This document shows positions 7,230-61,853 of a DNA stretch of 64,000 bases, piece after piece. Every line of letters starts with the position of its first letter. The first letter of the stretch is position 1. The translations under genes and the position numbers were made by a program. The notes under the pieces were generated by a model. It worked only from the letters and a program-made list of their open reading frames with translations. It did no database searches and was not told where the DNA came from. This DNA is from Amphiscolops sp. MND2022 (taxonomy: Eukaryota). The stretch spans positions 22,878,001-22,942,000 of the forward strand of contig OZ076417.1 of NCBI GenBank assembly GCA_964187785.1. The letters are read 5' to 3'.

Positions 7230-7885
7230 GCATTCGCATTGTTTTTCACCATAACGATTGAAAAGTTCCTTTAAAAATTGAGTTTTAAAACATTTATTAG
7301 TCTATTGGAAACTCGCTTGCGATGTACTTTGCAAAAGTTTCTCAGGGTCGAACTATCTTAGGTGGAACTGAACGTTCCATTGAACTAAATAATTCAAAGA
7401 GAAGGAGTTGTTTGCTTCTGCTCACGGAACGAATCGTTTGACTCGAGGATTTCTCCGAAAACATGTGTTTCACAAAAGTGAATGGGTCCATCAAGCTTGC
7501 TTATCATCAAGATTCTCCCTAGTGGCTTGGGATTTTGTTTGCAGTGAACTACCTCGTGCTCCCCTGGCAATGAGTTGTTTCCAACAGTAGCACATCTCTG
7601 GCAGCCGGACGATTGGGTTTCACAGACATCCACAGTTGCTCCTTTCAGGTCAACTGGAAGAAAGATGAGTCAGTACCTTATTGTTACGACGTGAAAATTT
7701 TTTCTTCAACAACAAGCATCGAAAAGTAAAAGAATTATGAAAGTATATTGAAAATTGCATCTTGAGATCTTGAATCCTTGTCCATATTAGGCATTCATTA
7801 CACCATCAAATGCTTCCATATTTCGATCCAATGAAAATAATTTGAAAAGTCAAATTTTATTCGATTCCAATAATTGTTGAGTATC
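7230..7885 (-). pseudogene. Old Gypsy pol G2, left part (RNase H to integrase), target of element A
   Basis: CQRCATVG...VVHCKQNPKPLGR...KLDGP (integrase Zn finger/core start) and a degenerate RNase H; begins at the GTATC TSD. Confidence 0.6.
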
Positions 7886-8425
7886 TGTAAGGAGTAGTGC
7901 CCGTATGTTTCCGTAGATCACAGGCGAAACTAGAGTCCTTTTTTGTAAATTTTGTATTTGTCTTTTTCCACACAATTCCAAAACCATCCTCATTTAAGGA
8001 CGTACACAGCTCAACGCCATGATGGTTCAAAGCAAATTTTCCACCATGTTTTGTATTTCTGGTATTATTCTCTCACGTATAGCGGAACTAAAAGCCCTAC
8101 TAATCTGAGTTTGCATGAAGTCCATCATTGTCTCCATTTCCGGGGACATCCTAGCATTCATTTCACCTGATAGCATATTAATTGACTCTATCGGTCTTCC
8201 TTTCCTAACAGGCTCATTTCTAATACTGATGTCTCTGATCTCATTCTCTTGAGATGAATTTTTTCTGTTCGGAAAAGACTGAAAACCCTGATTCTCTTTC
8301 TATAGAGTTTGAATTTCCATCCCCTAACATCACGTCCATGTTGCCGTAATCGGACAACAAATCTAGTTCTCTCGACTTTCTGGCCTTAGCCTTTTGCTTT
8401 CAGGTGGAAGGCTTAAAATAGTCAT
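7886..8425 (-). pseudogene. Gag N-terminal segment encoded inside the 3' LTR of A
   Basis: KQKAKARKSRELDLLSDYGNMDVMLG...MMDFMQTQISRAFSSAIRERIIPEIQNM, homologous to ORF 56717-57514; frameshifted. Confidence 0.75.
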
Positions 8426-9448
8426 ATAGAAGAAAATATTCAAATTATTCCTGCAACTATATATTGTGGGAGGGTTTTACAGAGTAATTTGCATGACTGT
8501 ATTTCAACAAACTGTCCCTTGCAAAAGCCCGAATTGGGTCTATATACCCAAGTGGGCACGACGCGCAATAAAATAGTGATCATGCTTTTATAAATAACCC
8601 ATGAGCTAAAAATAGACTGCATCATTACTATAAATAGCAACATTACGTTAGATCAAAAGTCCCGTCAAGGACACAAGACGTATAGGTCAAATTATTTACG
8701 AAGTAAATTTCATGTATATGTCAACTTTACATGTATAACAAAATTCATGTAGGCCCTCCACGGCCAATGACTGACTTTTTTCTGACTTCACTTCATCATG
8801 CAACACTACATACTAGCAGTACATGAGATTAACTATATCACAACTCAGACGATGCGTTTTACTAACTTGTATTTAAATGTAGCATCAATTTCTTGTCGCA
8901 ACTTCAAAGAATAAAAATGCTCAATTAGTCGATTGGCCGTATTAGGCCTTATTTCATAGCATAGCATCGACAGTATTAGTTCATCAAAAAAGGACGGCTA
9001 AGCCATAAGGCCGCTTCCGTCCTATAATAACTGTCTAGCAACATCATATTATGGCACCAAAGCAAAGTAAGACCGGCTAGGCCAAGCGGCCGTATTGGTA
9101 CATTCCGAATATTATCAAGTACAATTCAGCAACTGCAAATAAAGCAAGCAAGGCTCTGATTGGCTAATACGCCGTACACGGCTATGCTAGCTATACTGGA
9201 CAGGCAAACATTTGAACTCGTTTCCTTTCTGCCTGTCAGTATAGCTTGCTGTCGGATAGTAATTTCACTTAATACACAAGTACAAAAAAACTAATTTACA
9301 TGTTTTGAAAATACCGGAAATACAGAGAAAGTTTTCAAGTTTGTTAACAATTGCGAAGTTTGTCAAAATGACAATGCGCCGGGTAAGACAGTAGATACAC
9401 TTTGGTCGATGGTGTAGAGGTTGCCAGTACAGGCGGCAGCCTGCGACC
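7886..9448 (-). repeat. 3' LTR of element A (1563 bp)
   Basis: Preceded on the element strand by PPT GGGGGAG (9449-9455); matches the 5' LTR remnant at 35500-35893; ends CCTTACA next to the TSD. Confidence 0.8.
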
Positions 9449-10196
9449 CTCCCCCAGGTAGTAATAAGAACGTTAAAACTTGCATTCCCTCTATGAAAAA
9501 CCCTCTTGCGCACCTGGACTTGTACGGCTGTTTCCCCGGGATTCCCGTCTTGTCCAAATATTCGGATATTGCTTCACGTTGAATTTGCATTGTTGATTTT
9601 CCACAAATTACGCAATTGGAGCAATTCGCTAATGGGCTGTTTCCATTAAGTTCCATCCCTTGGAAATGACTTGTAATTATATCCAAGGACTGCTGTGGTT
9701 CCGAGTACTCAGTGTAATTTGGGAAGGAATTATAAGTTGATCCTCTATCCTCGGGTGGTGGCGACATATGAGTGTCTACCATAGGACTGCACAACTTCAC
9801 TGCACAACTAAATAGGATGATTATTTCGTATGCGGTCGTGTCGCTGTTTTGGGCCATTTCCTCTTCCCAGAGAAAAGAAGCACTGATCTGGAATGGGTTG
9901 TAGGCTATAACTTGGCTTCGGCTTCCCGCATCTCGATGGCCTATTTTGTAAGTTGGTACTCCCGAATTTTGATGTTGATGGACAAGGGACGGGAATGGGC
10001 GCTGATAGGTCCATTTCAAGACAATGGGCCATTATCATGTCATCATCGTATTCTTCATTATCTGATGACAATTGTAAGTATAGTACGGACGTTATGCTGA
10101 CGTCGTCCATTTCGTCTTCTTCATCGCTAGATATATATACTATTTCTACGCCCAGAGTGCGGCACCTTGAAAATTTTGAGGAAATCGTTCCGCCAT
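9363..10196 (-). pseudogene. ORF X of element A (acidic SIM-like N-terminus, CxxC, SQAAAC C-terminus overlapping the LTR start)
   Basis: VEIVYISSDEEDE (frame of 9808-10110), then NCVICGKS...GGSQAAACTGNLYTIDQSVSTVLPGAL (9363-10019); homologous to 58702-59484; frameshifted. Confidence 0.8.
9449..9455 (-). promoter_or_regulatory. Polypurine tract of element A (GGGGGAG), inside the ORF X coding sequence
   Basis: Directly abuts the LTR start defined by the TSD-bounded 5' LTR copy. Confidence 0.7.
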
Positions 10197-10831
10197 GTAT
10201 CTAGCCTTTTATAGTTTCTTCGCAATTTTGAGAAGGAAAATATGTTTAGGCTTTTCAAAATTTTAAGCTTGAACGAACCAACTGAACTTGCAGATTTTAA
10301 AAGAGAGAATGATGATTTTTCGTTTTGAAAGCTTTAGGACATCCTTGTGACCCGTGATTCTTTTCCCGGTCGTTCATATAGGGAAACTCTTCTAAACACT
10401 CTTTGATGATTCCAATCAGCCGCTTTGTTTACGTCTTCTTTACTTTCAAGTGCCTAAGACGGCAAGATGTCTTCCAGGACTTCATCAAGTGTTTATCATC
10501 TCTTGACTGCCACTCGAGAGTCTCAAGAGGTGTTATGTAGGCCTGCTGACGTGATGGCCATTAGGATTCTCCCATTCTGCTGACGCTCCAAGATGGCGGA
10601 TTAAAAAGTAACAGTCCAAATAAGTAAATAAATTGAATATTTGTAAAAATAATACATCTATGGTAAAACAAAAGCTTCGAAAGATATAGTTCCTGTGGAT
10701 TTCTCTGGCAGATTCCATCCACAAAATATTATTCATAATTGTATACATATTTGACATCAAATCCAGTTTGCCACGAACTCCGAACTTTTCTGTTCTCGCA
10801 TTTTGTTTCTATTTCTCTATTTATTCATTGT

Positions 10832-11722
10832 TGTAACGGGTGCTTGATCCCTTCACTTGACCAAACTTTACGCCGCCCTGAAATCGGTGTTCGGCACTGC
10901 GGATCGTTACCGAACACTGCTTGCTTCTTAGATTAAAAGGACTGTATCTTGACTTAGTAGGATCCAATGATACCGAATTGCACTTCTTCCTTGTCTCTTA
11001 ACAAGTCCAACTCCGCACATTTTGAGAGTAACTAACTTAGTCGCCCTAAGTCTTTGGCAAAAAGTCGAAAAGATGTCAAGAAATGAATTGAGAATTGAAA
11101 TGATCCTGAGACTCATTTTGAGTACAACTTTCCAATCAATTTGTGCCGAATAAGCTATAGTATACATATCGTTTACAATTATTCGATCAATACAAGTCAA
11201 AGTATGAAGTATAAATGAATGACATTTAAGGCATAATATGAAGTTATTAGCTATGTAAACAAATTATGTGGTGGTTCTGACCTGAATTTTAGGTAGGCTA
11301 GAACGTATGTTCATACAATGTAAATATCACCAATTCCAATAGCATTTCATATCCTTCAAGGTCACATGAGAAAATGACATTATAATTTGTATATCAAAAT
11401 TGGGCTTTCATGGGGTCTGACCTAGGTCAATTTGGTTGTTAAATGCTCTGAACCCTAGGGGAGATACGGGATTAGATGAATAGAGTGAAAAATTGAGTTA
11501 ACACATCCAGTATATCCATGCTAAGTTTCACGGTGATTGAAAGAAGGCTTCTAAAAAGGGGGTGGTGTTATCTTCCTATTTTGGTAGATCATCACTATTT
11601 TTGCAGAAACCTGTAATTTTCCAACTAAAATCTTGACAAATTTTTCAAGTGTTTTGATTTATAGGTTCAATCAGTCACAATCAAAATTCGGTTTCTCGTC
11701 ATGCAATTGACTGGCGCCAACA
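10832..11722 (-). repeat. BEL 3' LTR (891 bp)
   Basis: Direct repeat of 25250-26148; preceded on the element strand by PPT-like GGGAGAAAAACTGGGCCGGCAA; starts TGTTGGCGCCAG. Confidence 0.95.
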
Positions 11723-13949
11723 TTGCCGGCCCAGTTTTTCTCCCGAAAAACACTTTCGTAGAAGAGAGGTGCAAGTTTCACAACTGGTCTTTTGAGTTTT
11801 CCATCTTTTGTTACAACTGTCACAGATCTAACTCTGCTGTCTCTTCCTTCTTGCACTTCCAAGACTCTCGCCATCTTGTACTTGGACCGCTTAACATTTT
11901 CATCCACGACCCAAACCAAATTGTTGACTTTCAGCTGTCTCACGTCATCTTTGATCCATTTATTACGCACATTCCATTCCGGCAGATCTTCTTTAGACCA
12001 TCTGGTCCAGATCATATCTGAATAAGCTTGCGACACTCCAAACACTCGTCTCAAATCTGTGTAACATTGAGCGTCTGGTAGGAATGGTGCGGCTAAACTA
12101 GCTCTTCCCAATAAGAAGTGATTTGGTGTCAAAGCTTCCAAGTCATCAGGATCGTCACTAACACTAGTCAGTGGTCTGGCATTCAACGTCTGCTCTACTA
12201 AAAACATAGATGTTATGAGGACGTCGTCTTTCAAGGATCGTCCATCCAATACAGCTATCATTACTTTTTTACAGCTTCGAACTAGACGTTCCCAGATTCC
12301 TCCAATTGTGGAGCCCCAGGATGGTTGAACTTCCACTTGATGTCCTTTTGAGCTAAAGATTTCTCAATATCTGACTGGTTTCATGCATTTAAAGAATCTC
12401 TCATTTCTTTAGCTGCACCCACGAAGTTTGTCCCATTATTACTCAAAATTGTAGCAGGTTTGCCTCTTTGGGCAATAAACCGTGTTATAGCATTTAACCA
12501 GGTCTCTGCTTCCAAGGATGGAACAACTTCAATGTGTACTGCTCTAGTCGTCAAATATGTGAAGAGACAACACGATCTCTTCATAGTCTTACGCATGAAC
12601 TTCACTTCAAAAGGACAAAAATAGTCAACTCCAGTGTTGTTAAAGGGGAACACTCGTTCCTGCAATCTTTCGCGGGTTAAAGCAGTCATCAATGGTTGAG
12701 ACACTCCAGCTCGTTGCTTTCTATATTAGACACATTTCGCTTTGACGCTTCTCAGTGCCTTTCGCAATCCAGTAATCCCATATTCTTGCCTCAGAACACT
12801 TCTGACGTTTTCTGTGCCTTCATGACACTTCGTCTGATGAGCATCTTCAATCAACTTGATGACAACAAAATGCTTTGCTGACAACGAGATCGGGTGTTTG
12901 ACTTCATAACTTAATTTTGAATGCTGCAGTCAGCCTTGTAGTCGCCGCAATTCCTTTTCATCCAGAAACGGCGTTAAATTATTCAAATGATCTGAAGCCG
13001 GCAACGGCTGCCCTTTAAAGATTTTCTCGTAGGAATCATGAAAACTCTCCTTCTGACAACGTTTCAAAATGCCCGGTATTGCCGCATTATTACTTCAACT
13101 GTCAGATTTCCTCCATATTTCCTTTTCTTCCACCTTAAGCAGTATGAGAACACTCGAATCATTTTCTTGAAAGACCCAAATCTTCCCCATTCGAATGCGG
13201 GTTCCATTACAGCAGCTTCCATGACTGGTTCTGGCACTTCTTGAACGTTAAATTGCAATTTTTCAGGCGCCTTAGCCCAAGCCTCCTCTGTCTCGGTGAG
13301 CCATGCCGGCCCTGTGAGCCACTCACTCTCTTTCAGAGCTTCAACTATCATTTTTCGAGTTCCGATATCAGCGGGGTTTAAGTTTTTCTTCAACATGCAG
13401 CAACTGATCGTTAGTTGAATATCGAAAATTTCTGCAACTCTGTTCGCTACGAAGACCGGTTGCTTGTTGTTGCTTGCGTGAAGCCATTGTAGGACCGTTG
13501 TTGAATCCAATGTACGATTTGGTCTTTTACAAAATCATGTTCTTCCAAAACAAGTTCTCGCAGCCTCAATCCAAAAACTGCTGCTTGCATTTCCAACTTG
13601 CCAACTGTCATGTTTCTAATTGGAGCTACTGTACACTTCCCGATCACAAAAGTCACCTCGCCATTGTCTTGTTTTCTCAGAAAGGCAACCCTACACACTG
13701 CTTCCAACGAAGCGTCTGAGAAGATATGTGGTATCTCTATGCGCTATCTTCACCGGTTTTCTCCTTCTGCATGCCTCTGCAGACTTCCAGATTGTCTGCG
13801 TCAACGTTCCATTGCAGTCCCTAGATGGTTGGAGAGGTCGGCTCTGCTTCAAAGGTTTTACTAGAGGACGGTGACTTGTCTGCTTGGTCGATAGATGTCA
13901 TAGGTCTGTTCGCAGTTGCTAATCCATTTTGTTAACTGAAAACTTCCCC
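11723..13949 (-). pseudogene. BEL pol 3' part (end of RT, RNase H, integrase), single copy, with frameshifts and deletions
   Basis: ORFs 11671-12336, 12381-12704, 13064-13510 and 13447-13707 carry BEL integrase and RNase H motifs (NPADIGTR, LNARPLT...LTPNHFLLG). Confidence 0.9.
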
Positions 13950-16900
13950 TTGACAACATTACTCGCAACAATTTGTAGATTTCAATAGCCTGCTCAGCGC
14001 TGGGCACAGACTGACTTGACAAAGTCATCCAATTAGAAGTTTCGCTGTATCAAATTTGAAAATTGTGGGGACTCCTGTGCGATATCTTTTGCAACTTGTT
14101 GCAAAGTATAATTAGCGCTAGTTGGCGAATGTTTGGCTCGGAAGATGTCTTTCATACTCAAATACCTTAACGGGTTCATTTGGATTGTCTCTCCATTGAA
14201 ATTCTAACACTTTACAATCTTCCGGCGGTACTTTCACTTGTAGGAACCACGCTTCAAAGTCAGCAATGATGGCGATCTTTTGTTCTCTGAACCTGAATAC
14301 TATTCCAATCAGATTCTGCAGTAGGTCCGGTCCTGTCAAGAGGTTATCGTCCAGTGAAATTCCTCTGAATGTAGAGGCTGCGTTGCAGACTCGCCTCTCT
14401 TTCCCAGGTTTGTTTGGGTGTTCAACTGGGTGATGTGGTACACATCACTGTCTTTCCAATTTTGTGGCTTCTAAATCTTCCTGCTTTAGGATTCTGACGA
14501 ATCTCTTGACTACATGTACTTTGATGGATTCTTGATAGAGTTTCTTCAACTCCGACTTCTTTTTGAGTCTATACTCCAACGATTTCTTTGGCTCAATGCC
14601 GAAGAATAATTGTTCGGCAAGAAGGGGTCCCTTCTTTTCCAGAGAAGGCCAACTTCGTATCTTTCGCAATCAAACTTTGTGGTTTGTTCTAGCATCTGCA
14701 ACGCCTTCTCATTGTCCTTGGACCTTCCAGATACATCGCAGCGGGATGCATATGATTCAATGTCCCACCAGGTTTTTATCTGTTCTACCAGCACACCATC
14801 TTCAGAAGCTGTTACGCAAGATGCAGTCATCTGCACAGCTTCTTGTTGTGGAAGTGGTCCACAGAGGGTCCATCCAAGTTTCGTTTTCAATGCCCAAGGC
14901 TCACCATTCGTGCAGCTTTTATATTCTTCAGGCGGATGTATATGGTAGCAGTTTTGTCCCAATATCATTTTTACATTTTTGAATTTCAATGTTTCTTCGT
15001 TTAGAACCGACAAGTGGGGATAGGCATGTTTGAGCTCCCGATAGTTGTAGATCTTTTTTACGGCGTCTAAGTTTGGATGAGTGTAGACTGTCATGTGGTG
15101 AGTATTCTAGCCATACTCAGGTAAATTTCTTCCCTGTGAGCATTTAATTTTTCAGCCAATGTATTGTCTATGAACTATAGGCTGGCTTCAGATTCGCACA
15201 ACGCCATAGTGGATTCTTTGTTTTTTTCCAACTTGGATGATTATAGGAATAAGCGGAAGAATCCCACTGCTCTTCAATGAGCGAAATGCAGAGTTCACCT
15301 CCGCCTTCTGTTGTGGGTCTGCCACTCCACTATCTTTCGGCCGTCCATTTGCCTCGCGATGTAGCAACCGATGATGCCGCCTGCTACAACCTTTGACTCC
15401 AAACACTTTGTATGTGCAACCTTTCACTACATGTTTCCCAGCCACACAACAAAAGCAGAGTTTCAACTCTTTGACTTTCTCATATCGCGCTTGACATGTC
15501 ATCTTCAAAAACTTCTCGCATTTCCACAACGCATGTTTACCATCTTTCAATAGACAATCTTGGCCAGTCTTCTTGTCGGTTTTATGGTGGGCGAAAGTTT
15601 AAAAAAATTCTTTGGCTTGTCTTTACTTGTCCATTTCGATTTGTCGCGTTGACAATGCCTGTCATAAGAACATCTTCCTGCACCGCTGCTACCTCTTGCA
15701 ACCATAAGCTGAACGCTTCCAGCCCTATGTAGTAATTGGCATTATGTCTCGCGTACGTCAACCATTTCGTATTCATGTTCAGTGGCAGTTTTCTGGTCGC
15801 ACTACACAGGACGCATTTTAACTGCAAGTCTCCAACAAAATTCACATGCGTCAGAACTTGTACACAACTTGAAACTATTCTCGAGTATTTGACCAATGCT
15901 ACCGAATCGAACACTTTCATGGCTGGAAAGGTGTATATTCTTCTCAGTTGTGCGTTACCTTCCACTTGTGGTCTCCCAAAGTGCGCGACCAAGGTATTCC
16001 AGGCAATAGCATACATGTCTCTAGTGTAGCATAGTCCAGCTATCATTTCTTTTGATTTCCCAGTGACCAGTGTTTTGAGGTGATTCATCTTCAAGCTTGC
16101 GTTGATGTTTGCAGCGTGCACGGTCGAGAGGAACAACCCTGACTACTCAGGCCATTCCAATGGGTCACCTGAGAAGTCTGCCAGCTTCAGTTTCGGCAAA
16201 GGCTCACTAGGCTCACTGCTCCATTTCTTGTTTGTCGCGAACTGACTGTATGGGGGCCGAGTAGTTAGCTCAGGGTACCATTGGTGGTGGTAATGTACCA
16301 CTTTTCGTCTGGGTACTTAACAGTGGTTCATTTGGGGGTTCGAAGATCACAAACTGCACTTCTGTTGAACTGTCTTATTCATTTGCATCTTTGCTGATGC
16401 AGCTTTCGACGCGAATCGACTAGCCGACGTGCCATCCTTTACCATGGTTGGCTGCGCCGTTTTAGCAGCCAGGTGGGGCATATGTGCTGGGTGTGGCAAG
16501 GGGTCAGATTGGGTTCGATAGGTTCGCTGACCAGTGCGATTCTGGATACCTCTTTTCCAACGTTCGTTTTTTTTTGTCACATCCAATTTCATCAAGCCAA
16601 GAAGGTACCTTTTCGAAGGGATTGCTGCGAGATGTTGCGCAAACTGTGCATGCTCTGCCTCCCTCCGCTCCAGCTATTTCCATTTCCTTCTCTGCTATTC
16701 GTTTAGCCCTCGCGTTTCCTTCTTCGCTTTTGGCAATTTCTAGTTCCTCCGCGAGTATCCTCATGTTCATCTACTCCTGTTTCTGCCGGATCTCAGATTG
16801 AAACTTCTTGGCAGCAAGTTGCTCATCCATTTCTTCTTGTTTTTTTAATGCTGCTAATTCTAGAAGTAGTACACGCTTTGCATTTGATTACTGGGATCTA

Positions 16901-19900
16901 ACTGTCGTTCTGTTGCCCTTTGAATGTGCCTTGCTTGCACACCTGTCTCTTTCTTCGGGTAGCGATGTCACCTCATTATTCCAACAATTCACAAACGAAC
17001 TAGGTCCAACGGTATCCTGTGCCACGTCTTCATTCGCATCCTTCTGATGTTCTTTTGTCGTGTATCCGAGGAATCTCATCCGTCCCGATATCTGGAAAAT
17101 CTGTCGCCGTTTCTATCATCCCATACTGATTGATACTTGGCTTTCAAGAGTGCTTTGTTCGCCGCGACGAGTCTCTTCCATCAGGTGAAAAGGTCTTGTC
17201 GGTTCGGTAGAAGATCTGCAAGTTTCTCCGTTGTCGCGTCTGCTTCGCGCAGCTCTGCATGTATTTCATCCATTTTTGTCTCAAAGTTTTGAATTGCTCT
17301 CATGTTGCTCTCCCATTGTGGTTTGTCCTTCATAGAACTCTTGAAATGGTTGTCAATTCTTTTGTAATCAATTCTTTTAGGTTCAGCCATTTTGAACTAC
17401 CCAAAACCCAGAGTACACTAAATGAACATAAGAGTGCCAATTGTTCCACTGCGAATACAACTCCCAACAAGACGATGAAGTAACCCAAAACACAAGAGTA
17501 CAACTCATACCCAAGAGCTCTAGTAATACCACTTTGAATACAATCTCCCAGAGCCTGCGGAAGTAGCCCAAGCCGCAGGGTACAATATACACAGAGGCGA
17601 GCCCAGATGAGACCACTTTGCAGCGCACATGGTGGTTCAAAAAAGCTGTCGTTTACTGTATACGTTCACTTGTTGGCAACTTGTTACTCGCAACAATTTG
17701 TAGATTTCAATAGCCTGCTCAGCGCTGGGCACAGACTGACTTGACAAAGTCATCCATATAGAAGTTTCGCTGTATCAAATTTGTGGGGACTCCTGTGCGA
17801 TATTTTTTGCAACTTGTTGCAGAGTACAATTAGCGCTAGTTGGCGAACGTTTGGCTCGGAAGATGTCTTTCATACTCATATACCTTGTTATGAATAACGG
17901 GTTCATTTGGATTGTCTCTCCATTGAAATTCTAACACTTTACAATCTTCCGGCGGTACTTTCACTTGTAGGAACCACGCTTCAAAGTCAGCAATGATGGC
18001 GATCTTTTGTTCTCTGAACCTGAATACTATTCCAATCAGATTCTGCAGTAGGTCCGGTCCTGTCAAGAGGTTATCGTCCAGTGAAATTCCTCTGAATGTA
18101 GAGGCTGCGTTGCAGACTCGCCTCACTTTCCCAGGTTTGTTTGGGTGTTCAACTGGGTGATGTGGTACACATCACTGTCTTTCCAATTTTGTGGCTTCTA
18201 AATCTTCCTGCTTTAGGATTCTGACGAATCTCTTGACTACATGTACTTTGATGGATTCTTGATAGAGTTTCTTCAACTCCGACTTCTTTTTGAGTCTATA
18301 CTCCAACGATTTCTTTGGCTCAATGCCGAAGAATAATTGTTCGGCAAGAAGGGGTCCCTTCTTTTCCAGAGAAGGCCAACTTCGTATCTTTCGCAATCAA
18401 ACTTTGTGGTTTGTTCTAGCATCTGCAACGCCTTCTCATTGTCCTTGGACCTTCCAGATACATCGCAGCGGGATGCATATGATTCAATGTCCCACCAGGT
18501 TTTTATCTGTTCTACCAGCACACCATCTTCAGAAGCTGTTACGCAAGATGCAGTCATCTGCACAGCTTCTTGTTGTGGAAGTGGTCCACAGAGGGTCCAT
18601 CCAAGTTTCGTTTTCAATGCCCAAGGCTCACCATTCGTGCAGCTTTTATATTCTTCAGGCGGATGTATATGGTAGCAGTTTTGTCCCAATATCATTTTTA
18701 CATTTTTGAATTTCAATGTTTCTTCGTTTAGAACCGACAAGTGGGGATAGGCATGTTTGAGCTCCCGATAGTTGTAGATCTTTTTTACGGCGTCTAAGTT
18801 TGGATGAGTGTAGACTGTCATGTGGTGAGTATTCTAGCCACACTCAGGTCAATTTCTTCCCCGTGAGCATTTAATTTTTCAGCCAATGTATTGTCTATGA
18901 ACGATAGGCTGGCTTCAGATTCGCAAAACGCCATAGTGGATTCTTTGTTTTTTTCCAACTTGGATGATTATAGGAATAAGCGGAAGAATCCCGCTGCTCT
19001 TCAATCAGCGAAATGCAGAGTTCACCTCCGCCTTCTGTTGTGGGTCTTCCACTCCACTATCTTTCGGCCGTCCATTTGCCTCGCGATGTAGCAACCGATG
19101 ATGCCACCTGCTACAACCTTGACTCCAAACACTTTGTATGTGCAACCTTTCACTACATGTTTCCCAGCCACACAACAAAAGCAGAGTTTCAACTCTTTGA
19201 CTTTCTCATATCGCGCTTGACATGTCATCTTCAAAAACTTCTCGCATTTCCACAACGCATTTTTACCATCTTTCAATAGACAATCTTGGCCAGTCTTCTT
19301 GTCGGTTTTATGGTCGGCAAAAGTTTTTAAAAATTCTTTGGCTTGTCTTTACTTGTCCATTTCGATTTGTCAACGTTGAGAATGCCTGTCATAAGAACAT
19401 CTTCCTGCACCGCTTCTACCTCTTGCAACCATAAGCTGAACGCTTCCAGCCCCATGTAGTAATTGGCATTATGTCTCGCGTACGTCAACCATTTCGTATT
19501 CATGTTCAGTGGCAGTTTTCTGGTCGCACTACACAGGACGCATTTTACCTGCAAGTCTCCAACAAAAGTCATATGCGTCAGAACTTGTACACAACTTGAA
19601 ACTATTCTCGAGTATTTGACCAATGCTACCGAATCGAACACTTTCATGGCTCGAAAGGTGTATATTCTTCCCAGTTGTGCGTTACCTTCCACTTGTGGTC
19701 TCCCAAAGTGCGCGACCAAGGTATTCCAGGCAATAGCATACATGTCTCTAGTGTAGCATAGTCCAGCTATCATTTCTTTTGATTTCCCAGTGACCAGTGT
19801 TTTGAGGTGATTCATCTTCAAGCTTGCGTTGATGTTTGCAGCGTGCACGGTCGAGAGGAACAACCCTGACTACTCAGGCCATTCCAATGGGTCACCTGAG

Positions 19901-22900
19901 AAGTCTGCCAGCTTCAGTTTCGGCAAAGGCTCACTAGGCTCACTGCTCCATTTCTTGTTTGTCGCGAACTGACTGTATGGGGGCCGAGTAGTTAGCTCAG
20001 GGTACCATTGGTGGTGGTAATGTACCACTTTTCGTCTGGGTACTTAACAGTGGTTCATTTGGGGGTTCGAAGATCACAAACTGCACTTCTGTTGAACTGT
20101 CTTATTCATTTGCATCTTTGCTGATGCAGCTTTCGACGCGAATCGACTAGCCGACGTGCCATCCTTTACCATGGTTGGCTGCGCCGTTTTAGCAGCCAGG
20201 TGGGGCATATGTGCTGGGTGTGGCAAGGGGTCAGGTTGGGTTCGATAGGTTCGCTGACCAGTGCGATTCTGGATACTTCTTTTCCAACATTCGTTTTTTT
20301 GTCACATCCAATTTCATCAAGCCAAGAAGGTACCTTTTCGAAGGGATTGCTGCGAGATGTTGCGCAAACTGTGCATGCTCTGCCTCCCTCCACTCCAGCT
20401 ATTTCCATTTCCTTCTCTGCTATTCGTTAAGCCCTCGCGTTTCCTTCTTCGCTTTTGGCAATTTCTAGTTCCTCCGCGAGTATCCTCATGTTCATCTCCT
20501 CCTGTTTCTGCCGGATCTCAGATTGAAATTTCTTGGCAGCTAGTTGCTCATCCATTTCTTCTTGTTTTTTTTTAATGCTGCTAATTCTAGAAGTAGTACA
20601 CGCTTTGCATTTGATTACTGGGATCTAACTGTCGTTCTGTTGCCCTTTGAATGTGCCTTGCTTGCACACCTGTCTCTTTCTTCGGGTAGCGATGTCACCT
20701 CATTATTGCAACGATTCACAAACGAACTAGGTCCAACGGTATCTTGTGCCACGTCTTCTTTCGCATCCTTCTGATGTTCTTTTGTCATGTTTCCGAGGAA
20801 TCTCATCCGTCCCGATATCTGGAAAATGTGTCGCCGTTTCTATCATACCATTCTGATTGATACTTGGCTTTCAAGAGTGCTTTGTTCGCCGCGACGAGTC
20901 TCTTCCATCAGGTGAAAAGGTCTTGTCGGTTCGGTGGAAGATCTGCAAGTTTCTCCCTTGTCGCGTCTGCTTCGCGCAGCTCTGCATGTATTTCATCCAT
21001 TTTTGTCTCAAAGATTTGAATTGCTCTCATGTTGCTTTCCCATTGTGGTTTGTCCTTCATAGATCTCTTGAAATGGTTGTCAATTCTTTTGTATTCAATT
21101 CTTTTAGGTTCAGCCATTTTGAACTACCCAAAACCCAGAGTACACTAAATGAACAAAAGATTGCCAATTGTTCCACTGCGAATACAACTCCCAACAAGAC
21201 GATGAAGTAACCCAAAACACAAGAGTACAACTTAAACCCAAGAGCTCCAGTGATACCACTTTGAATACAATCTCCCAGAGCTTGCGGAAGTAGCCCAAGC
21301 CGCAGGGTACAATATACACAGAGGCGAGCCCAGATGAGACCACTTTGCAGCGCACACAGTGGTTCAAAAAAGCTGTCGTTTACTGTATACGTTCACTTGT
21401 TGGCAACTTGTTACTCGCAACAATTTGTAGATTTCAATAGCCTGCTCAGCGCTGGGCACAGACTGACCTGACAAAGTCATCCATATAGAAGTTTCGCTGT
21501 ATCAAATTTGTGGGGACTCCTGTGCGATATTTTTTGCAACTTGTTGCAGAGTATAATTAGCGCTAGTTGGCAAACGTTTGGCTCGGAAGATGTCTTTCAT
21601 ACTCATATACCTTAACGGGTTCATTTGGATTGTCTCTCCATTGAAATTCTAACACTTTACAATCTTCCGGCGGTCATTTCACTTGTAGGAACCACGCTTC
21701 AAAGTCAGCAATGATGGCGATCTTTTGTTCTCTGAACCTGAATACTATTCCAATCAGATTCTGCAGTAGATCCGGTCCTGTCAAGAGGTTATCGTCCATT
21801 GAAATTCCTCTGAATGGAGAGGCTGCGTTGCAGACTCGCCTCACTTTCCCAGGTTTGTTTGGGTGTTCAAATGGGTGATGTGGTACACACCACTGTCTTT
21901 CCAATTTTGTGGCTTCTAAATCTTCCTGCTTTAGGATTCTGACGAATTTCTTGACTACATGTACTTTGATGGATTCTTGATAGAGTTTCTTCAACTCCGA
22001 TTTCTTTTTGAGTCTATACTCCAACGATTTCTTTGGCTCAATGCCGAAGAATAATAGTTCGGCAAGGAGGGTCTCTTCTTTTCCAGAGAAGGCCAACTTC
22101 GTATCTTTCGCAATCAAACTTTGTGGCTTGTTCTAGCATCTGCAACGCCTTCTCATTGTCCTTGGACCTTCCAGATACATCGCAGCGGGATGCATATGAT
22201 TCAATGTCCCACCAGGTTTTTATCTGTTCTACCAGCACACCATCTTCAGAAGCTGTTACGCAAGATGCAGTCATCTGCACAGCTTCTTGTTGTGGAAGTG
22301 GTCCACAGAGGGTCCATCCAAGTTTCGTTTTCAATGCCCAAGGCTCACCATTCGTGCAGCTTTTATATTCTTCAGGCGGATGTATATTGTAGCAGTTTTG
22401 TCCCAATATCATTTTTACATTTTTGAATTTCAATGTTTCTTCGTTTAGAACCGACAAGTGGGGATAGGCATGTTTGAGCTCCCGATAGTTGTAGATCTTT
22501 TTTACGGCGTCTAAGTTTGGATGAGTGTAGACTGTCATGTGGTGAGTATTCCAGCCACACTCAGGTCAATTTCTTCCCCGTGAGCATTTAATTTTTCAGC
22601 CAATGTATTGTCTATGAACGATAGGCTGGCCCCAGATTCGCACAACGCCATAGTGGATTCTTTGTTTTTTTTTCCAACTTGGATGATTATAGGAATCAGC
22701 GGAAGAATCCCACTGCTCTTCAATGAGCGAAATGCAGAGTTCACCTCCGCCTTCTGTTGAGGGTCTTCCACTCCACTATCTTTCGGCCGTCCATTTGCCT
22801 CGCGATGTAGCAATCGATGATGCCGCCTGCTACAACCTTTGACTCCAAACACTTTGTCTGTGCAACCTTTCACTACATGTTTCCCAGCCACACAACAAAA

Positions 22901-25127
22901 GCAGAGTTTCAACTCTTTGACTTTCTCATATCGCGCTTGACATGTCATCTTCAAAAACTTCTCACATTTCCACAACGGATGTTTAATATCTTTCAATAGA
23001 CAATCTTGGCCAGGCATTTTGTCGGTTTTATGGTCGGCGAAAGTTTAAAAATATTCTTTGGCTTGTCTTTACTTGTCCATTTTGATTTGTCGCGTTGAGA
23101 ATGCCTGTCATAAGAACATCTTCCTGCACCGCTGCTACCTCTTGCAACCATAAGCTGAACGCTTCCAGCCCCATGTAGTAATTGGCATTATGTCTCGCGT
23201 ACGTCAACCATTTCGTATTCATGTTCAGTGGCAGTTTTTTGGTCGCACTACACAGGACGCATTTTACCTGCAAGTCTCCAACAAAATTCATATGCGTCAG
23301 AACTTGTACACAACTTGAAACTATTCTCGAGTATTTGACCAATGCTACCTAATTGAACACTTTCATGGCTGGAAAGGTGTATATTCTTCTCAGTTGTGCG
23401 TTACCTTCCACTTGTGGTCTCCCAAAGTGCGCGACCAAGGTATTCCAGGCAATAGCATACATGTCTCTAGTGTAGCCTAGTCCAGCTATCATTTCTTTTG
23501 ATTTCCCAGTGACCAGTGTTTTGACGTGATTCATCTTCAAGCTTGCGTTGATGTTTGCAGCGTGCACGGTCGAGAGGAACAACCTTGACTACTCAGGCCA
23601 TTCCAATGGGTCACCTGAGAATTCTGCCAGCTTCAGGTTCGACAAAGGCTCACTAGGCTCACTGCTTCATTTCTTGTTTGTCGCGAACTGACTGTATGGG
23701 GGCCGAGTAGTTAGCTCAGGGTACCATTGGTGGTGGCAATGTACCACTTTTCGTCTGGGTACTCAACAGTGGTTCATTTGGGGGTTCGAAGATCACAAAC
23801 TGCACTTCTGTTGAACTGTCTTATTCATTTGCATCTTTGCTGATGCAGCTTTCGACGCGAATCGACTAGCCGACGTGCCATCCTTTACCATGGTTGGCTG
23901 CCCCGTTTTAGCAGCCAGGTGGGGCATATGTGCTAGGTGTGGCAAGGGTACAGGTTGGGTTCGATAGGTTCGCTGACCAGTGCGATTCTGGATACCTCTT
24001 TTCCAACATTCGTTAATTTTTTGTCACATCCAATTTCATCAAGCCAAGAAGGTACCTTTTCGAAGGGATTGCTGCAAGATGTTGCGCAAACTGTGCATGC
24101 TCTGCCTCCCTCCGCTCCAGCTATTTCCATTTCCTTCTCTGCTATTCGTTTAGCCCTCGCGTTTCCTTCTTCGCGTTTGGCAATTTCTAGTTCCTCCGCG
24201 AGTATCCTCATGTTCATCTACTCCTGTTTCTGCCGGATCTCAGATTGAAACTTCTTGGCAGCAAGTTGCTCATCCATTTCTTCTTGTTTTTTTAATGCTG
24301 CTAATTCTAGAAGTAGTACACGCTTTGCATTTGATTACTGGGATCTAACTGTCGTTCTGTTGCCCTTTGAATGTGCCTTGCTTGCACACCTGTCTCTTTC
24401 TTCGGGTAGCGATGTCACCTCATTATTGCAACGATTCACAAACGAACTAGGTCCAAAGGTATCTTGTGCCACGTCTTCATTCGCATCCTTCTGATGTTCT
24501 TTTGTCGTGTTTCCGAGGAATCTCATCCATCCCGATATCTGGAAAATTTGTCGCCGTTTCTATCATCCCATTCTGATTGATACTTGGCTTTCAAGAGTGC
24601 TTTGTTCGCCGCGACGAGTCTCTTCCATCAGGTGAAAAGGTCTTGTCGGTTCGGTAGAAGATCTGCAAGTTTCTCCCTTGTCGCGTCTGCTTCGCGCAGC
24701 TCTGCATGTATTTCATCCATTTTTGTCTCAAAGTTTTGAATTGCTCTCATGTTGCTCTCCCATTGTGGTTTGTCCTTCATAGAACTTTTGAAATGGTTGT
24801 CAATTCGTTTGTAATCAATTCTTTTAGGTTCAGCCATTTTGAACTACCCAAAACCCAGAGTACACTAAATGAACAAAAGAGTGCCAATTGTTCCACTGCG
24901 AATACAACTACCGCGAATACAACAAGACGATGAAGTAACCCAAAACACAAGAGTACAACTTATACACAAGAGCTCCAATAATACCACTTTGAATACAATC
25001 TCCCAGAGCCTGCCGAAGTAGCACAAGCCGCAGGGTACAATATACACAGAGGCGAGCCCAGATGAGACCACTTTGCAGCGCACACAGTGGTTCAAAAAAG
25101 CTGTCGTTTACTGTATACGTTCACTTG
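13950..25127 (-). repeat. Three tandem copies of a ~3.73-kb BEL block (leader, gag, PR, RT to YMDD): 13950-17672, 17673-21399, 21400-25127
   Basis: The same ORF fragments recur with periods 3723/3727/3728 (e.g. MAEPKRI at 17390/21117/24837); both junctions read CACTTGTTGGCAACTTGTTACTCGC. Confidence 0.95.
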
Positions 25128-25231
25128 TTGACACAGTGTTCTCTTGCCGTGTAGCAATTAGATGATCATCCAGTTGTCCGCCCGATTGATGATGTCCGTC
25201 CAAATGATGAGGTCCGCCCAAATGATGATGT

Positions 25232-25249
25232 CCGGGACGGCGGACCGAA
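25232..25249 (-). promoter_or_regulatory. BEL primer-binding site, tRNA-Tyr-like
   Basis: Element strand TT-CGGTCCGCCGTCCCGGA right after the 5' LTR; same geometry as the tRNA-Tyr PBS TGGTCCTTCGAGCCGGA, with the first base mutated. Confidence 0.55.
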
Positions 25250-26148
25250 TGTAACGGCTGCTTGATCCCTTCACTTGACCGAACTTCACGCCGTCCTGAA
25301 TACGGTGTTCGGCACTGCGGATCATTACCGAACACTGCGTGCTTCTTAGAATAAAGGGACAGTATCTTGACTAAGTAGGATCCAATGATCCTGAATTGCA
25401 CATCTTCCTTGTTTCTTAACATGTCCAACTCCCCACAATTTGAGAGTAACTAACTTAGTCGCCCTAAGTCTTTGTCAAAAAGTCGAAAAGATGTCAAAAA
25501 TGAATTGAGAAATGAAATGGTCCCAAGACCCAAGTTGAATACAGCTTTCCAATTGTTTTGTGCCTAACTAGCTATAGTACACATATCGTTTACAATTATT
25601 CTATAAACATTAGTCAAAATATGAAGTATAAATAAATGACAATTAAGGCATAATATGAAGTTATTAACTAAGTAAACCAATTATGTGGTGGTTCTGACCT
25701 GATTAATAGGTAGGCTAGAAAGTATATTTTTACAACGTAAATATCACCAATACCAATAGCATTACATATCCTTCAAGGTCACATGACACATGAGAAAATA
25801 ACATAACAATTTGTAGATCAAAATTGGGTTTTCTTGGGGTCTGACCTGAGGTCACTTTGGATTTTATTTGCTCTGAGCCCAGGGGAGATACGGGGTTGGG
25901 TGTATCGAGTGAAAAGTTGAGTTAACACCTCCAGTACATACATGCTAAGTTTCACGGTGGTTGAGCAAGTGCTTCTAAAAAGGGGGAAAGGTGTTATCTT
26001 CCTATTTTGGTAGATAATCACTATTTTTGCAGATTTTTGTAGATTTCCAACTGAAATCTTGACAAATTTTTCAAGTGTTTTGAGTTGTAAGTTTCATCGA
26101 TCATCATCAAAATTCGGTTTCGCGTCAAGCAACTGACTGGCGCCAACA
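25250..26148 (-). repeat. BEL 5' LTR (899 bp)
   Basis: Direct repeat of 10832-11722, flanked by the ATTGT TSD. Confidence 0.95.
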
Positions 26149-26557
26149 ATTGTTACATTGCCATTTTCATATTTCAAATACTAACTTATCAGTATCTTAC
26201 CCTGTTCTTCAGTCTTTCCTTTCCGTCTTTCACTACCTTTTGTTAGACCTTTCTGTTCTTTGGCTTACAGTCGACTGAAGATCCCGGATTTTACATCTGG
26301 ACCACGGGACCGCTATTTCCTCCTTCAATAGGCCAGGCGCCAGAGTCTTCTCCTACAATATCCAACTCTCGGTCTAACAAATCCCTGTCAGCAGTGTTAT
26401 TGTTCAACTGGAACTGACCACATCTCTCTCTATCTCTCTCTCTCTCTCTCTCCAACTCTCATCCTACATTTGTCGAACAGCCCTAGGTAATCTATCTGGT
26501 CTTTTTTCATTTTGAACGGAAAAGAGCTTGATGAAAGCTCCTAATCGCTTTCACAAA

Positions 26558-26618
26558 CTTCCTGTTTCTTTTGTTAAAAAAGTCGTAACACTCTGTGTTT
26601 TCATTTCACTTCCGGAAG
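26558..26618 (+). promoter_or_regulatory. Conserved motif pair upstream of ORF1 in A (CTTCCTGTTTC; TCACTTCCGGAAG, ETS-like)
   Basis: The same two motifs occur in the same order and similar spacing at 60512-60578 in element B, amid otherwise diverged DNA. Confidence 0.65.
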
Positions 26619-26688
26619 GTTTTAACTGCGGTTTTTGGATTGATTTCCAGAAAGATACGGGCAAATTTTCATTTCCTTCTGTTTAGAC

Positions 26689-26750
26689 ATGTCAAGTCAG
26701 AAGGATCTGCCAGAATCCACTCCTCATCCAGCTGATGCCGTCAATGATCA

Positions 26751-26786
<36 letters not shown>

Positions 26787-27834
26787 AATTGAAGGAATAC
26801 CAGAGAAGCCGTCCCTAATCGGTTTTCTCCTAAGGATTCACATGGTAGTAAGTCCACTGACGAAAGCATCACTGCTTTTATCGAAAGAACGGTCTCTTCC
26901 ATTGCACTTTTCGAAACTGAGGCCGTCAAGGCTTTCCTGCCGCCAGCTGGATCTGCGATAGCCATCCGTTCCTAAACTTTAATTTTCCAAAAGGTGTCCG
27001 TCTCGGATCCTATTACTGTGCCTCAAGATTTCCAAGCAGACCAGCCAGGAACGTCTGCCGAGAATGACGCCATTCCCCGCACAGAAGCGAAAGCCCTGTA
27101 TGCGGATACCAGTGACGTCGAGGAGCAAATTGACAGTTCCAGTGTTGAAGCCTTTCCACCTGCCTCGGCCGCTCTGGCTTTTGATCCCGCATCATTCCCT
27201 GGTTACGAAGGCGATTTCCACAGTGAATTTGGGCACAGTGACGCTGAGCAGGATCAGTATCGGGCAAACCTATCCACGGCTGATAGACAATTGACTGGAA
27301 AGGGAAAGGCAGTCATAAAGAAGTACTTTAGCCAGATCCGTCCGTCCCATATCATTGACAGTCGGACACCCAACCATTGCCCTTAATGCAGAGGAAATGC
27401 ATGCCATCCTCAGGACCATCGCTGACGAGTCGGTCATATCCTACTATCATATGATGAAGTCCTTGTTACTCCATGCTACACAGAGGGCTCCACGTGATAA
27501 ACGCAGCAAAGGAAATCCACGGCGTTGTGCCACACCGGACCGAACTTGCCCTGAAAATTCTGGTGACGAAACCAGCATGGGAGGTAACACAACTGATGGC
27601 TACACTAGTGGGGCTATCAATTCAGACGAGGAGCCCTACAACTTTGGCTCATTATCAGGGGCTAAGACTGCCAATGAAACTGATCCCCTTCTCAGAGTTG
27701 CGGAGAGACAAGCGTGGCAGCCTGCCACTTTGGCCCACATTGGAAATGTCACGCCAGCATCAGGAATGGATTCAGCAGTACTGACCACCAGCCACTGTCT
27801 CCTCTTGGACGAATGCTCTGTAAGGCCAACGTGA
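26689..27834 (+). pseudogene. ORF1 of element A (acidic, disordered, with a conserved helical core), antisense to pol
   Basis: LTGKGKAVIKKYF...PTIALNAEEMHAILRTIADESV aligns with LSGRSRAILKTYF...PTVAFTEPQIYHLLRVLTDETL in 60509-61816; frameshifts; possible intron about 26845-26993; (GA)n insertion. Confidence 0.75.
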
Positions 27835-27884
27835 CAATATCTTCAAAAGGTGCTTTAAAATCAGTCCACCTTTTCTTGTTGTAG

Positions 27885-29482
27885 GCCGTTGCCGACTGTA
27901 ACGTGGAGCTCAAGCGGATACCTTCTTTATGCGCAGAACTTGAGACTCACTGGCCGTCCATTCGGGACTACATAACTAAAACAGCCCCCACACAATTGAT
28001 GCATGGAATCAAGAACAATGTAATCATTTTCGAATTTATTCTAGGACTTTATTTTGTAGGGCACATTCGACCGTCGTTTCGTTAAGACAAATCAGTATCT
28101 TCTTTAGATTTGCGTCATAAGTTTATCGTTTCCTTTTCAGCCGCAGAGTCTGGAATAGACTATTATAATGGACGACTTCTTCACAATCAAGCTCAAATTC
28201 CTCTCCCTCCTTGTTGAGGATTGAAAGTTGCTTTTTTATACACTTTAAGATTTTATTGATTCTTATCTCCTCTGAAGGCCCATTTCGGCTTTATAGCTAA
28301 GATAACTAAAGTGCCCCACGTTGTTCCAGGACAACTTTTCCAAAATTGATTTTCCTTTCACTTCACGTCATGTTTAGACGCAAAATGCATCGACCGCAGT
28401 CTGGCTATTTGACGAGACGCTACTCTCTTCATCTACGGACAGTACTGCCGATTTGTGAGAAAGCTGTGTTGTCGTGTCATTTTGCCCGAATTCATACCTG
28501 ACAAGGTTAACTGGACTGGGTTGCTTCATCTGTGCCCAGACGATCTCAGGCAGTTGTCTACCCGGAACTTTGCTAATCGAGTCAAGCTCAAAACAGATCT
28601 CGAGACAGCCTGCCGTTCCAAAGTCCGCCGCCTGGACTCCGACAAGAAAACTGGGCCGCCTAACTTGGAAGAACTAATTGCTGCTAAGAAGGAGAGTTTC
28701 CAGATGAAGCCCCCAATAACGTCGTAACGTTACTGGAATCCCTATTGCGAGCCATCCACTTCACCGCCAATATTGTCCACGGTATGGGTTGTTTCGATCC
28801 ATACGTACTACTTTCCCTACCTCTAGACCAGGTCGCCTTCTGCTTCAATGCCCTCTTTGAAAGTTTCCGGCTTCGAGGTTGGGTGACCGGGGCGTCGATG
28901 AGCGACTGCAGGGACGAGTATTTTTAGTTCGTCGATTACTTCCGTAACGCTTACTCTGGTATCAAGGGTGCACCCGGCTTCATTCCTGATGTTCTCGAGC
29001 TTTTGACTCCAACGCCAGCTCTTCGTACCCGCTCTAAACTATTTCACTTGTACCGCCTAAGTTGTAGTTGCATTACTGAGAGCCATAAAGAACTCCCCGC
29101 TTTCAACTTCCAGGATATGGATACTTCGAGTCATCATTGCCGCCTTTCAAGTGTCATATTGCATGCTCAGTCCTAGTTATCTAATTGTCCTAATGCCCCT
29201 GCAGTCTGTACATCTGAGTCTACATTAGGTAAATACAAAGAACCGAAGTTACGATTCAATTCAGGCCAGTTGTCCGGAGACGCATGGTCTCATGTGGACA
29301 CCTTCGGTCGTTCTTCATTTTTCAAAACATTGACCGCTTCTTTCAAGGGTCTCAAGGTTTCCTCTCCTGGGAGTCAGTACAGCTTCTCGAACTTCCTCTG
29401 TGTCAATCTCTGCTGGGAAGAAGCTCAATTCGTGAAAGTAGCTCTAAAGACTAAATGTACATACAGTACTTTTGTTATCTAG
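27885..29482 (+). pseudogene. ORF2 of element A: hAT-transposase-like C-terminal half, spliced; zinc-finger half deleted
   Basis: VELKRIPSLCAELETHWPSIRDYIT (cf. B LDLRSLPTLCQELIDEWKPITTYLT); TANIVHGMGCFDP (cf. B SSNIVKGLAA); RSKLFHLYRLSC (cf. D RSHLLHVFKLCC). Confidence 0.7.
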
Positions 29483-29650
29483 ACTTTGCTTTTTGTAGAT
29501 TTCTGTTTTCTATTATTTGTACCATTTCCGTTTTTATATACGTATTCTGTCATATAAGTCAGTCAGATTAGTCCCAGTAAAAAACATCCTTTTTCGGACG
29601 ATAAGAGAAAAGGGACCGCTTTTAACATTTCTGAGTATTATCTGTAATCG

Positions 29651-33960: not shown

Positions 33961-34092
33961 GAGACGTATGAAAACCGTCTCCTCGAGTAGGCCGGGTGTG
34001 GTCTGTGTCTCGTTATTAGATGCTTCTTCATCTATTTATTCCTTATTGTTCATTTGTGGATTCGGTTGCCATGAATCGATAAGGTCCTGAGA

Positions 34093-35489: not shown

Positions 35490-35499
35490 TAAAGTATAG

Positions 35500-35893
35500 C
35501 ATCAAAGCAAAGTAAGACCGGTTGGGCCAAGCCGCCGTATTAGTCCATGCCGATTATCAGTAAGTACACCTCAGCAACTGCAAATAAAGCAAGCAAGGCT
35601 CTGATTGGCTAATACACCGTACGCGGCTATGCTTGCTATTCTGGACAGGCAAAAATTTCAACCCGTTTCCTTTCTGCCTGTCAGTATAGCCTGTTGTCAA
35701 ATATTAATTTCACTAAATACACAAGTACAAAAAAGATAATTTACATGTATTGAAAATACCGGAAATATGAAAAATGTTTTCAAGTTTGTTAACAATTGCG
35801 AAGTTTATCAAATTGGCAATGTGCCGGGTAGGGCCGTAGATACACTTTGGTCGGTGGTGTAGAGGTTGCCATCACAGGCGGCAGCCTGCGACA
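35500..35893 (-). repeat. 5' LTR remnant of element A
   Basis: Diverged direct repeat of about 9050-9448; starts TGTCGCAGGCTGCC beside the GTATC TSD; joined to internal gag by a deletion near 35490. Confidence 0.85.
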
Positions 35894-36300
35894 GTATCAT
35901 AGTCTCTTCATGACATTTTTGGACGTTTTTGGGTGGTAAATAAAGGCATCACAAAAGTTGATGTCTCTCAAATGCTTCAACTCCGTGAGCACGACCAACA
36001 GAACAAGGGAATGATGACTTTTCAAGTGGAAAAATTTGTTTGGAAATGACATGCAGATGATTTGGGAAAACAGCGGTTGAGAAATATCTTCATTTTTTCG
36101 AGAAGACAAAAAAACATCTTCGAGAGAAGTGTGTGTTATGAGCTTTGGATATACGTTTCAAGCTTTCTTATAGATTGAAACTTCAGTTTTGTCTGAAATC
36201 TCTCTCTCTCATCGAACCTGTAACCATAAATTTGAAACTCAGCAAATTTTACTAATTTGTTTTTGGAAGAAAAAATCAAAGATTTTTTTGTTTCATTTTT
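35894..36300 (-). pseudogene. Old Gypsy pol G2, right part (RT C-terminus to RNase H start)
   Basis: Degenerate ...QIYGYRFDE... and HSLVLLVVLTE...IYHPKTSKNVMKRL; continues into 7885 across the TSD. Confidence 0.5.
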
Positions 36301-61816: not shown

Positions 61817-61853
61817 GCACGTTACTCCTTTCATAAGTGGGGAACAGAGAGGA

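Follow-up and report, generated by a model that had tools for sequence, protein, structure and literature searches.

What is the reading frame at positions 9363-10196 of the minus strand, which appears to run from the interior of a retrotransposon directly into its LTR? The frame lies in a 64,000-nt stretch of contig OZ076417.1 of Amphiscolops sp. MND2022, referred to here as the window. A preliminary description had read it as one of three copies (A, B and D) of an accessory gene, ORF X, that passes through the polypurine tract (PPT) into the 3′ LTR and encodes a CxxC-containing protein with an N-terminus resembling a SUMO-interacting motif (SIM), possibly acting against silencing.

As a single open frame, 9363-10196 (−) does not survive comparison with an unbroken relative. 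Copy A aligns in three pieces (10196-10158, 10149-9790 and 9800-9372; 63-69% identity), and two frameshifts, near 10150 and near 9795, part the ATG, the IVYISSDEEDE piece and the CVICGKS...SQAAAC piece from each other. This decayed remnant keeps its SIM-like motif (IVYISSD then EEDE; 10123-10143, −) and its CxxCGKS (9594-9614, −), and it sits at the 3′ end of an old LTR element, element A, which spans 35893 to 7886 and has the TSD GATAC at 35894-35898 and 7881-7885. The 3′ LTR of element A (7886-9448, −) carries at its start the hairpin that encodes SQAAAC, and a 5′ LTR remnant (35487-35893, −) is 88% identical to the 3′ LTR over 406 nt; decayed gag-pol (29434-35477, −) and a decayed antisense gene region (26485-29356, +) also belong to the element. 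A nested LTR element of ~15 kb, BEL/Pao-like by eye (10832-26148, −), interrupts element A and parts its antisense gene from ORF X. Inside this insertion, at 13959-25133, a 3.7-kb internal piece is present three times in tandem at 97% identity, through expansion or an assembly effect.

The sole unbroken ORF X in the 64-kb window is copy B (58702-59484, −), which encodes 260 aa and has its final 28-29 codons within the 3′ LTR (56923-58790, −; 1868 nt; TSD CACAT). Its SIM-like motif is at 59395-59415 (−), and the 5′ part of an antisense gene with a zinc-finger-like motif (60596-62641, +) stands back to back with it. Element B is young, with LTRs that are 99.7% identical (the 5′ LTR lies outside the window) and an open pol of 1737 residues. 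The three SIM-like N-terminal peptides reported earlier were recovered in A, B and D, as was CxxCG(K/R)S in A and B, and the LTR junction is crossed in the same codon phase in all three copies (xTG TCG Cxx). The 22 nt at 35872-35893 and 58769-58790 are indeed identical, and the match stops there; the TGTCGC ascribed to the start of the 3′ LTR of A is actually GGTCGC at 9448, and 35893 is the start of A's own 5′ LTR. As a third ORF X, the D frame (55118-55851, +; LTR start crossed at 55739) is only partly borne out: the SIM-like motif (55136-55156, +) and the junction phase are present, but the frame is broken by a frame change near 55500 and by stops, CxxC is absent, and detectable homology to A/B does not extend beyond 13 columns.

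ORF X is carried by ~16-kb Ty3/Gypsy elements whose unbroken relatives are abundant in the host genome; searches with five queries gave at least 147, 150, 150, 148 and 148 matches, lower bounds on overlapping sets. Fourteen A/B and three D elements share a single layout: LTR (1.7-2.1 kb), primer-binding site (TGGTGACAGG), gag, pol, antisense gene (~4.5 kb), spacer (~1 kb) and sense ORF X, the last ending 28-38 codons within the 3′ LTR. In elements of clades A, B and D, the primer-binding site TGGTGACAGGAG directly follows the 5′ LTR. Paired LTRs of the form TG...CA were found in 14/14 A/B and 3/3 D elements and in window elements A and B, and both LTR ends with a 5-bp TSD are legible in eight B and three D elements. 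One pol was found to carry Pfam domains in Gypsy order, RVT_1 (E 6e-24; 85 bits), RT_RNaseH, Integrase_H2C2 and rve; a protease match upstream of RVT_1 fell under the cut-off, and no chromodomain was matched in Pfam for the one pol checked. Clade D stands apart from A+B with support 100 in a quick integrase tree of 42 rows, which omits six loci without an integrase match and has one A row (L158) mislabelled B.

Between the protease and RT (L081:6246-8000) there is a weak dUTPase-like Pfam match (E 0.075, under the cut-off); rotifer Gypsy lineages are described as having a dUTPase (PMC5408684). The gag ATG lies within the LTR, ~590 nt from its end, in clades A, B and D (window 56717-57514, −; L081:4516-6255), and the gag frame passes the LTR end and the primer-binding site, so that reading frames cross both LTR junctions. 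The antisense gene between pol and ORF X consists of several open pieces (window 60596-64000, +; L031:3681-7918, −), gave no Pfam match above cut-off and has ORFs with omega values of 0.032 and 0.051. It has been exchanged independently of ORF X: at loci L031 and L035, ORF X is 96% identical and the antisense part 49-60%.

Whether ORF X is a gene was addressed through codon substitution. The search found 110 frames, 108 of which were unbroken and analysed; these reduce to 29 representatives below 93% nucleotide identity. Outside the LTR, omega under the GY codon model is 0.065 in clade B (15 rows), 0.141 in A (7) and 0.111 in D (7), values that are approximate because synonymous sites are saturated between most subfamilies, and that describe unbroken ORFs only. 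The corresponding 2ΔlnL against omega = 1 is 1737, 473 and 503, and integrase at the same loci gives an omega of 0.047 (12 rows). Counting on the few unsaturated pairs is in agreement, at 0.096 (B, 3/105 pairs), 0.143 (A, 4/21) and 0.081 (D, 1/21). The dN/dS comparison across copies that had been suggested earlier thus finds purifying selection outside the LTR overlap in all three clades (0.065-0.141). Few parts of ORF X are as constrained as the SIM-like block (omega 0.019 in B, 0.075 in A and 0.008 in D), which in D is the most constrained of all. The 21-30 LTR codons past the junction are likewise under protein-level selection (0.042 in B, 0.112 in A, 0.063 in D).

An alternative is that the frame is no gene at all, being a by-product of cis-acting conservation of the LTR end. 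It draws on the junction codons, where a single codon is used at 5/10, 9/10 and 4/10 invariant columns in B, A and D, and on the broken state of window copies A and D. Outside the junction, however, only 1/72, 3/87 and 5/75 invariant columns keep a single codon, omega is far below 1 in every ORF X region, and 28/30 B and 20/29 A loci are unbroken, albeit among top-ranked and hence biased matches. Codon usage and omega refute the by-product explanation outside the junction, and we give it practically no credence for the frame as a whole. ORF X is almost certainly a real protein-coding accessory gene.

The ORF X protein diverges faster than the integrase. Clades A and B are 28% identical in ORF X and 85% in integrase, and two further pairs have 94-96% integrase identity against 59-60% for ORF X. 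Over 40 non-independent pairs, the Spearman correlation of ORF X divergence is 0.87 with that of the adjoining LTR, 0.37 with that of the 5′ antisense part and 0.27 with that of integrase; ORF X and the LTR are neighbours, and linkage alone could suffice for the first of these values. In the mechanism proposed below, the overlap would tie each ORF X to its LTR.

At the junction itself, the SQAAAC block had been suspected of being kept by the LTR terminus rather than by protein function, and the LTR terminus does in fact freeze its nucleotides. The LTR opens with 23 nt that form a hairpin of 9-10 bp, with z values of -3.8, -3.0 and -2.3 against simple shuffles for a region chosen by eye. Hairpin-bearing LTR starts lie at 9448, 35893, 58790, 42980 and 55739; that of element B (58768-58790, −) has a 9-10 bp stem and a 4-nt loop. 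All nine pairs are intact in 22/22 A/B representatives and the changes are solely from G-C to G-U, which indicates the sense-strand RNA. Clade D has a stem of different sequence, with three pairs changed on both sides (in a register set by hand). The outer nucleotides of the LTR start mirror the LTR end, as expected if they form the integrase attachment site.

The claim that the frame runs through a PPT holds for clade A, the only one with a short purine run at that position (GGGGGAG; 9449-9455, −, in element A), but not for clades B and D, which have no proper purine tract. The 14 nt before the 3′ LTR hold 5-7 purines in B, 7 in most of D and 7-10 in A. A missing purine tract is atypical, yet it does not outweigh the other Ty3/Gypsy features. 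Its absence, with a conserved hairpin in place, bears on how plus-strand synthesis is primed, and the hairpin may help to set the plus-strand start.

ORF X probably has an internal promoter of its own, judging from two motifs upstream of it. TCATTC or a near variant lies 55-115 nt before the ORF X ATG, and the five-base RG(A/T)(C/T)(A/C/G) follows exactly 27 nt past its adenine. This Inr-like motif with a DPE-like motif at exactly +28 is found in 20/29 representatives, or in 18/29 with a narrower initiator pattern, the Inr pattern having been widened by one letter after clade D had been seen. Any other offset from +20 to +36 gives at most 5, and shuffles give a mean of 0.08 and a maximum of 2. 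The DPE position is taken from PMC4748587, where the same layout, with the DPE at +28 to +32, is described for insect retrotransposon promoters. The pattern is present in window copies A (TCATTC with AGTTG, a predicted core promoter; 10279-10312, −) and B (59520-59553, −; predicted start 68 nt 5′ of the ATG) and absent from window copy D and 9/29 representatives. Clade D representatives have it in common with A/B despite the unrelated D protein, and the pattern had 0 matches up to 300 nt from either the gag ATG or that of the antisense gene.

These motifs could instead be a branch point and a trans-splice acceptor, trans-splicing being used by 30% of the genes of a related acoel (PMC9911081). 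However, 8/20 sites have no YAG (7 have AAG and 1 has no AG), and the letters past the AG are conserved. A separate observation is that 22/22 A/B representatives encode KIAKK(L/I)I in frame 5-8 codons 5′ of the first ATG (window 10212-10229 in copy A and 59488-59505, both −). The block varies mostly at third positions and has no conserved upstream ATG among A/B representatives; it may mark a near-cognate start or serve as a motif in the RNA. The DPE-like AG was rejected as a conserved coding splice acceptor, its distance to the KIAKK block being 19 or 20 nt and the phase differing. By eye, the ~1-kb spacer of L031 and its relatives also has CACTTGA/TCAAGTG palindromes and ATTGG boxes upstream of ORF X, and CTTCCGGAAG palindromes upstream of the antisense ATG.

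What, then, does the protein do? The A/B and D proteins align over 13 columns only, those of the SIM-like motif (hhalign probability 3.7%), while their integrases are 54% identical, and the D ORF was rejected as a homologue of A/B. Either the two proteins have diverged beyond recognition except at the motif or one has replaced the other; on both readings the SIM-like motif would be the core of the function. It consists of four hydrophobic positions, the third being Tyr, Cys, Asp or Asn, followed by S-x-S/D and acids, in an N-terminus with a net charge of -9 to -14 in 60 residues. Of 20 diverged library members, 9 have a forward SIM pattern (shuffles: mean 2.0, maximum 7). A tighter, family-shaped pattern finds 10/20, but it was drawn from the family itself, which makes its shuffle test circular. 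The pattern has shifted to an internal site (VVVVSDDEDS) in P0224, and the full-length diverged members P0149, P0167, P0173 and P0198 are without a forward SIM core. A reversed SIM as compensation was discarded, its 4/20 occurrences not exceeding chance (shuffle mean 2.0). An [ST]PxSP site is present in 17/20 diverged members (shuffles 0.5), none of the three proteins has a psi-K-x-E site, and the D protein has no clear basic signal.

In the structure model, 143/260 residues fall under pLDDT 50, including residues 1-26 and 28-36, and confidence is confined to helices 184-199 and 206-226 behind the CxxC (pTM 0.43). The protein is accordingly predicted to be mostly disordered, with the SIM-like motif in a disordered, accessible region. 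A small, helical C-terminal unit may bind zinc through some of five conserved candidate ligands, C121 (59/66 rows), H159 (72/89), C177 (82/88), C180 (83/88) and C238 (86/88), the last of which is fixed by the LTR hairpin; the best Pfam zinc-finger match is weak (E 0.004, 9/89 members). An env-like ORF3 was ruled out, with no transmembrane stretch in the three proteins (highest 19-residue hydropathy 1.31, 1.15 and 0.77) and no Pfam family. The clade D ORF (L126, L163 and others) has the motifs STPIK, [ST]PRK and PVLRDITN and a C-terminal RGRGHGR within the LTR, and three older clade D copies (L109, L113 and L166) cross the junction in another frame.

Searches for a known family or fold led to no assignment. 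Pfam searches with single proteins and with 89 aligned members reached E 0.002-0.004 at best, too weak for a family; a sequence profile had 0 matches in the PDB at E 10, Foldseek had none at E 0.001 against PDB and BFVD, the VIA wide fold search reached Z 5.2 for a helical hairpin only, and the protein atlas gave a first match of 0.80 and nothing usable. Such blanks are no proof of a new fold. A profile search of 1.84 billion representatives found 408 proteins at E 0.001, and the homologues looked up (the best 120 of 216, the best 150 of 408, 27/27, and 20 clusters) are all unnamed; some are on short metagenome contigs, and the family possibly occurs in other hosts. The literature search, which covered few subscription papers, found no description of the ORF X family or of a SIM-bearing retrotransposon accessory protein; repeat libraries in the supplements of acoel genome papers could contain these elements. 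Extra ORFs near the 3′ LTR are known as a kind, and the ORF X family itself appears to be new.

Accessory frames that overlap U3 are familiar from bel2 and HIV nef, and ORF X does likewise. In position it is like the extra sense ORFs between pol and the 3′ LTR of other Ty3/Gypsy elements (PMC7264820; rotifer ORF3 types, PMC5408684). Unlike those ORFs as described there, it is not env-like, matches no enzyme family, brings its own promoter-like motifs, extends over the PPT position and U3, is paired back to back with an antisense gene, and gives way in the sister clade to a non-homologous protein with the same motif. Foamy virus tas/bet (PMC10534306) is also a regulatory gene beside the 3′ LTR with an internal promoter, as ORF X appears to be; ORF X, in contrast, has no sequence or fold match to Tas/Bet (Pfam, PDB, BFVD) and is carried by an invertebrate retrotransposon without env. 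CERV of the C. elegans element Cer1 resembles ORF X as a Gypsy accessory protein in which cysteines are conserved and a phospho-site is proline-directed (PMC10309623). CERV differs in having 517 aa and three folded domains and in being spliced from gag exons, and that paper does not mention SUMO.

The closest likenesses to the motif are the SIMs of HCMV IE2 (10.1101/655282) and PML (PMC4276917), which, as far as those reports describe them, also have a four-residue hydrophobic core followed by serines and acids and are predicted to be disordered. The SIM consensus used here was compared with that of IE2 (10.1101/655282). ORF X differs from both in its third core position and in having no nearby psi-K-x-E in the three proteins, and its binding is a prediction. 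CK2 phosphorylation raises the SUMO affinity of IE2 SIM1 8-fold (10.1101/655282), and a CK2 effect is likewise described for the PML SIM, although that source does not give the motif letters (PMC4276917). The host has a SUMO gene with two exons (L189:2572-3321), exon 1 being 80-86% identical to the SUMO of acoel-like relatives and 80-83% identical to that of two convolutid acoels. Weighing against SUMO are the Tyr, Cys or Asp at the third core position, the full-length diverged members without a forward core, and an acidic, Ser-rich, aromatic N-terminus with a helix at 44-58 that would also suit a plain activation domain. Overall, we lean slightly towards SUMO binding by the ORF X motif and, should it bind, an activating or anti-silencing role would be rather more probable than not.

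The mechanism that we propose begins with a subgenomic mRNA that would start ~55-115 nt 5′ of the ATG and end at the LTR poly(A) site. Its product would act as a phospho-regulated SUMO-binding hub through the N-terminal motif, the serines behind the hydrophobic core presumably receiving CK2-type phosphorylation. Working in trans on SUMO-marked chromatin, either as a decoy or as an adaptor, it may compete with or redirect the contacts between SUMO and SIMs by which piRNA-guided silencing recruits SetDB1/Wde (10.1101/533091), so that the element promoters stay open. The complete proposal, an own-promoter, SUMO-binding accessory gene that keeps element promoters active, is tentative; we consider it the likeliest of the explanations weighed here while stopping short of calling it probable.

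The same observations can be arranged without SUMO. ORF X could be a transactivator in which an acidic activation domain with CK2 sites is joined to a C-terminal unit that attaches to DNA or to the DNA-binding protein of the antisense gene, switching on the LTR and internal promoters in the manner of foamy Tas. The acidic N-terminus, the co-inheritance of ORF X with its LTR, the back-to-back zinc-finger-bearing antisense gene and promoter-like motifs beside the 3′ LTR that mirror the foamy arrangement (PMC10534306) all suit this explanation. Fold searches, however, did not find a DNA-binding fold. Activation domains are also usually loosely conserved, whereas the core motif has an omega of 0.008-0.075 and recurs in a non-homologous protein. 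A SUMO-independent transactivator is unlikely in our estimate, if well worth keeping in mind.

We give distinctly less weight to an RNA factor like CERV. Such a protein, rich in Cys and regulated by phosphorylation, would bind the genomic RNA, perhaps at the hairpin of the LTR start, and license export of unspliced RNA. Here the [ST]PxSP site and the conserved cysteines recall S214 and the Cys loop of CERV (PMC10309623), and the hairpin's restriction to G-C/G-U variation is in keeping with an RNA target; against this, there is no sequence family link, the D protein is without the CxxC unit, and CERV arises by splicing of gag exons, whereas ORF X is equipped with an ATG and promoter-like motifs of its own. 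A shade less probable still is a motif that binds SUMO to steer integration, by tethering the complex to SUMO-marked chromatin, or to steer particle assembly, rather than to counter silencing. It shares the SIM-like motif evidence with the anti-silencing proposal and would accord with the lack of a chromodomain match in one pol, but ORF X does not co-diverge with integrase, as the correlation and the two divergent pairs above attest.

Returning to the anti-silencing proposal, a broader and rather improbable extension of it would regard these as 'complex' retrotransposons with a two-way cassette, in which a tamed transposase-like DNA-binding gene lies opposite a SUMO-decoy slot. Proteins in the slot would be exchangeable provided that the phospho-SIM is kept, and would have their own Inr+DPE and be locked to the LTR, the hairpin replacing the polypurine tract. 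If this is true, SUMO-dependent silencing would have in ORF X an antagonist encoded by a retrotransposon, and this would help to explain why LTR elements dominate acoel genomes (PMC9911081). SUMO-SIM contacts are central to piRNA-guided chromatin silencing. Counter-defences against this step are known from DNA viruses, and our literature search found none encoded by a retrotransposon. The family is young and abundant, and its motif is more strongly constrained than most of the protein and stays so across a non-homologous replacement, which makes the SUMO question testable with a single peptide.

Two further repeats were noted elsewhere in the window, a 31-nt tandem array at 39801-40065 and a 78-nt inverted repeat with a 7-nt spacer at 44616-44778.
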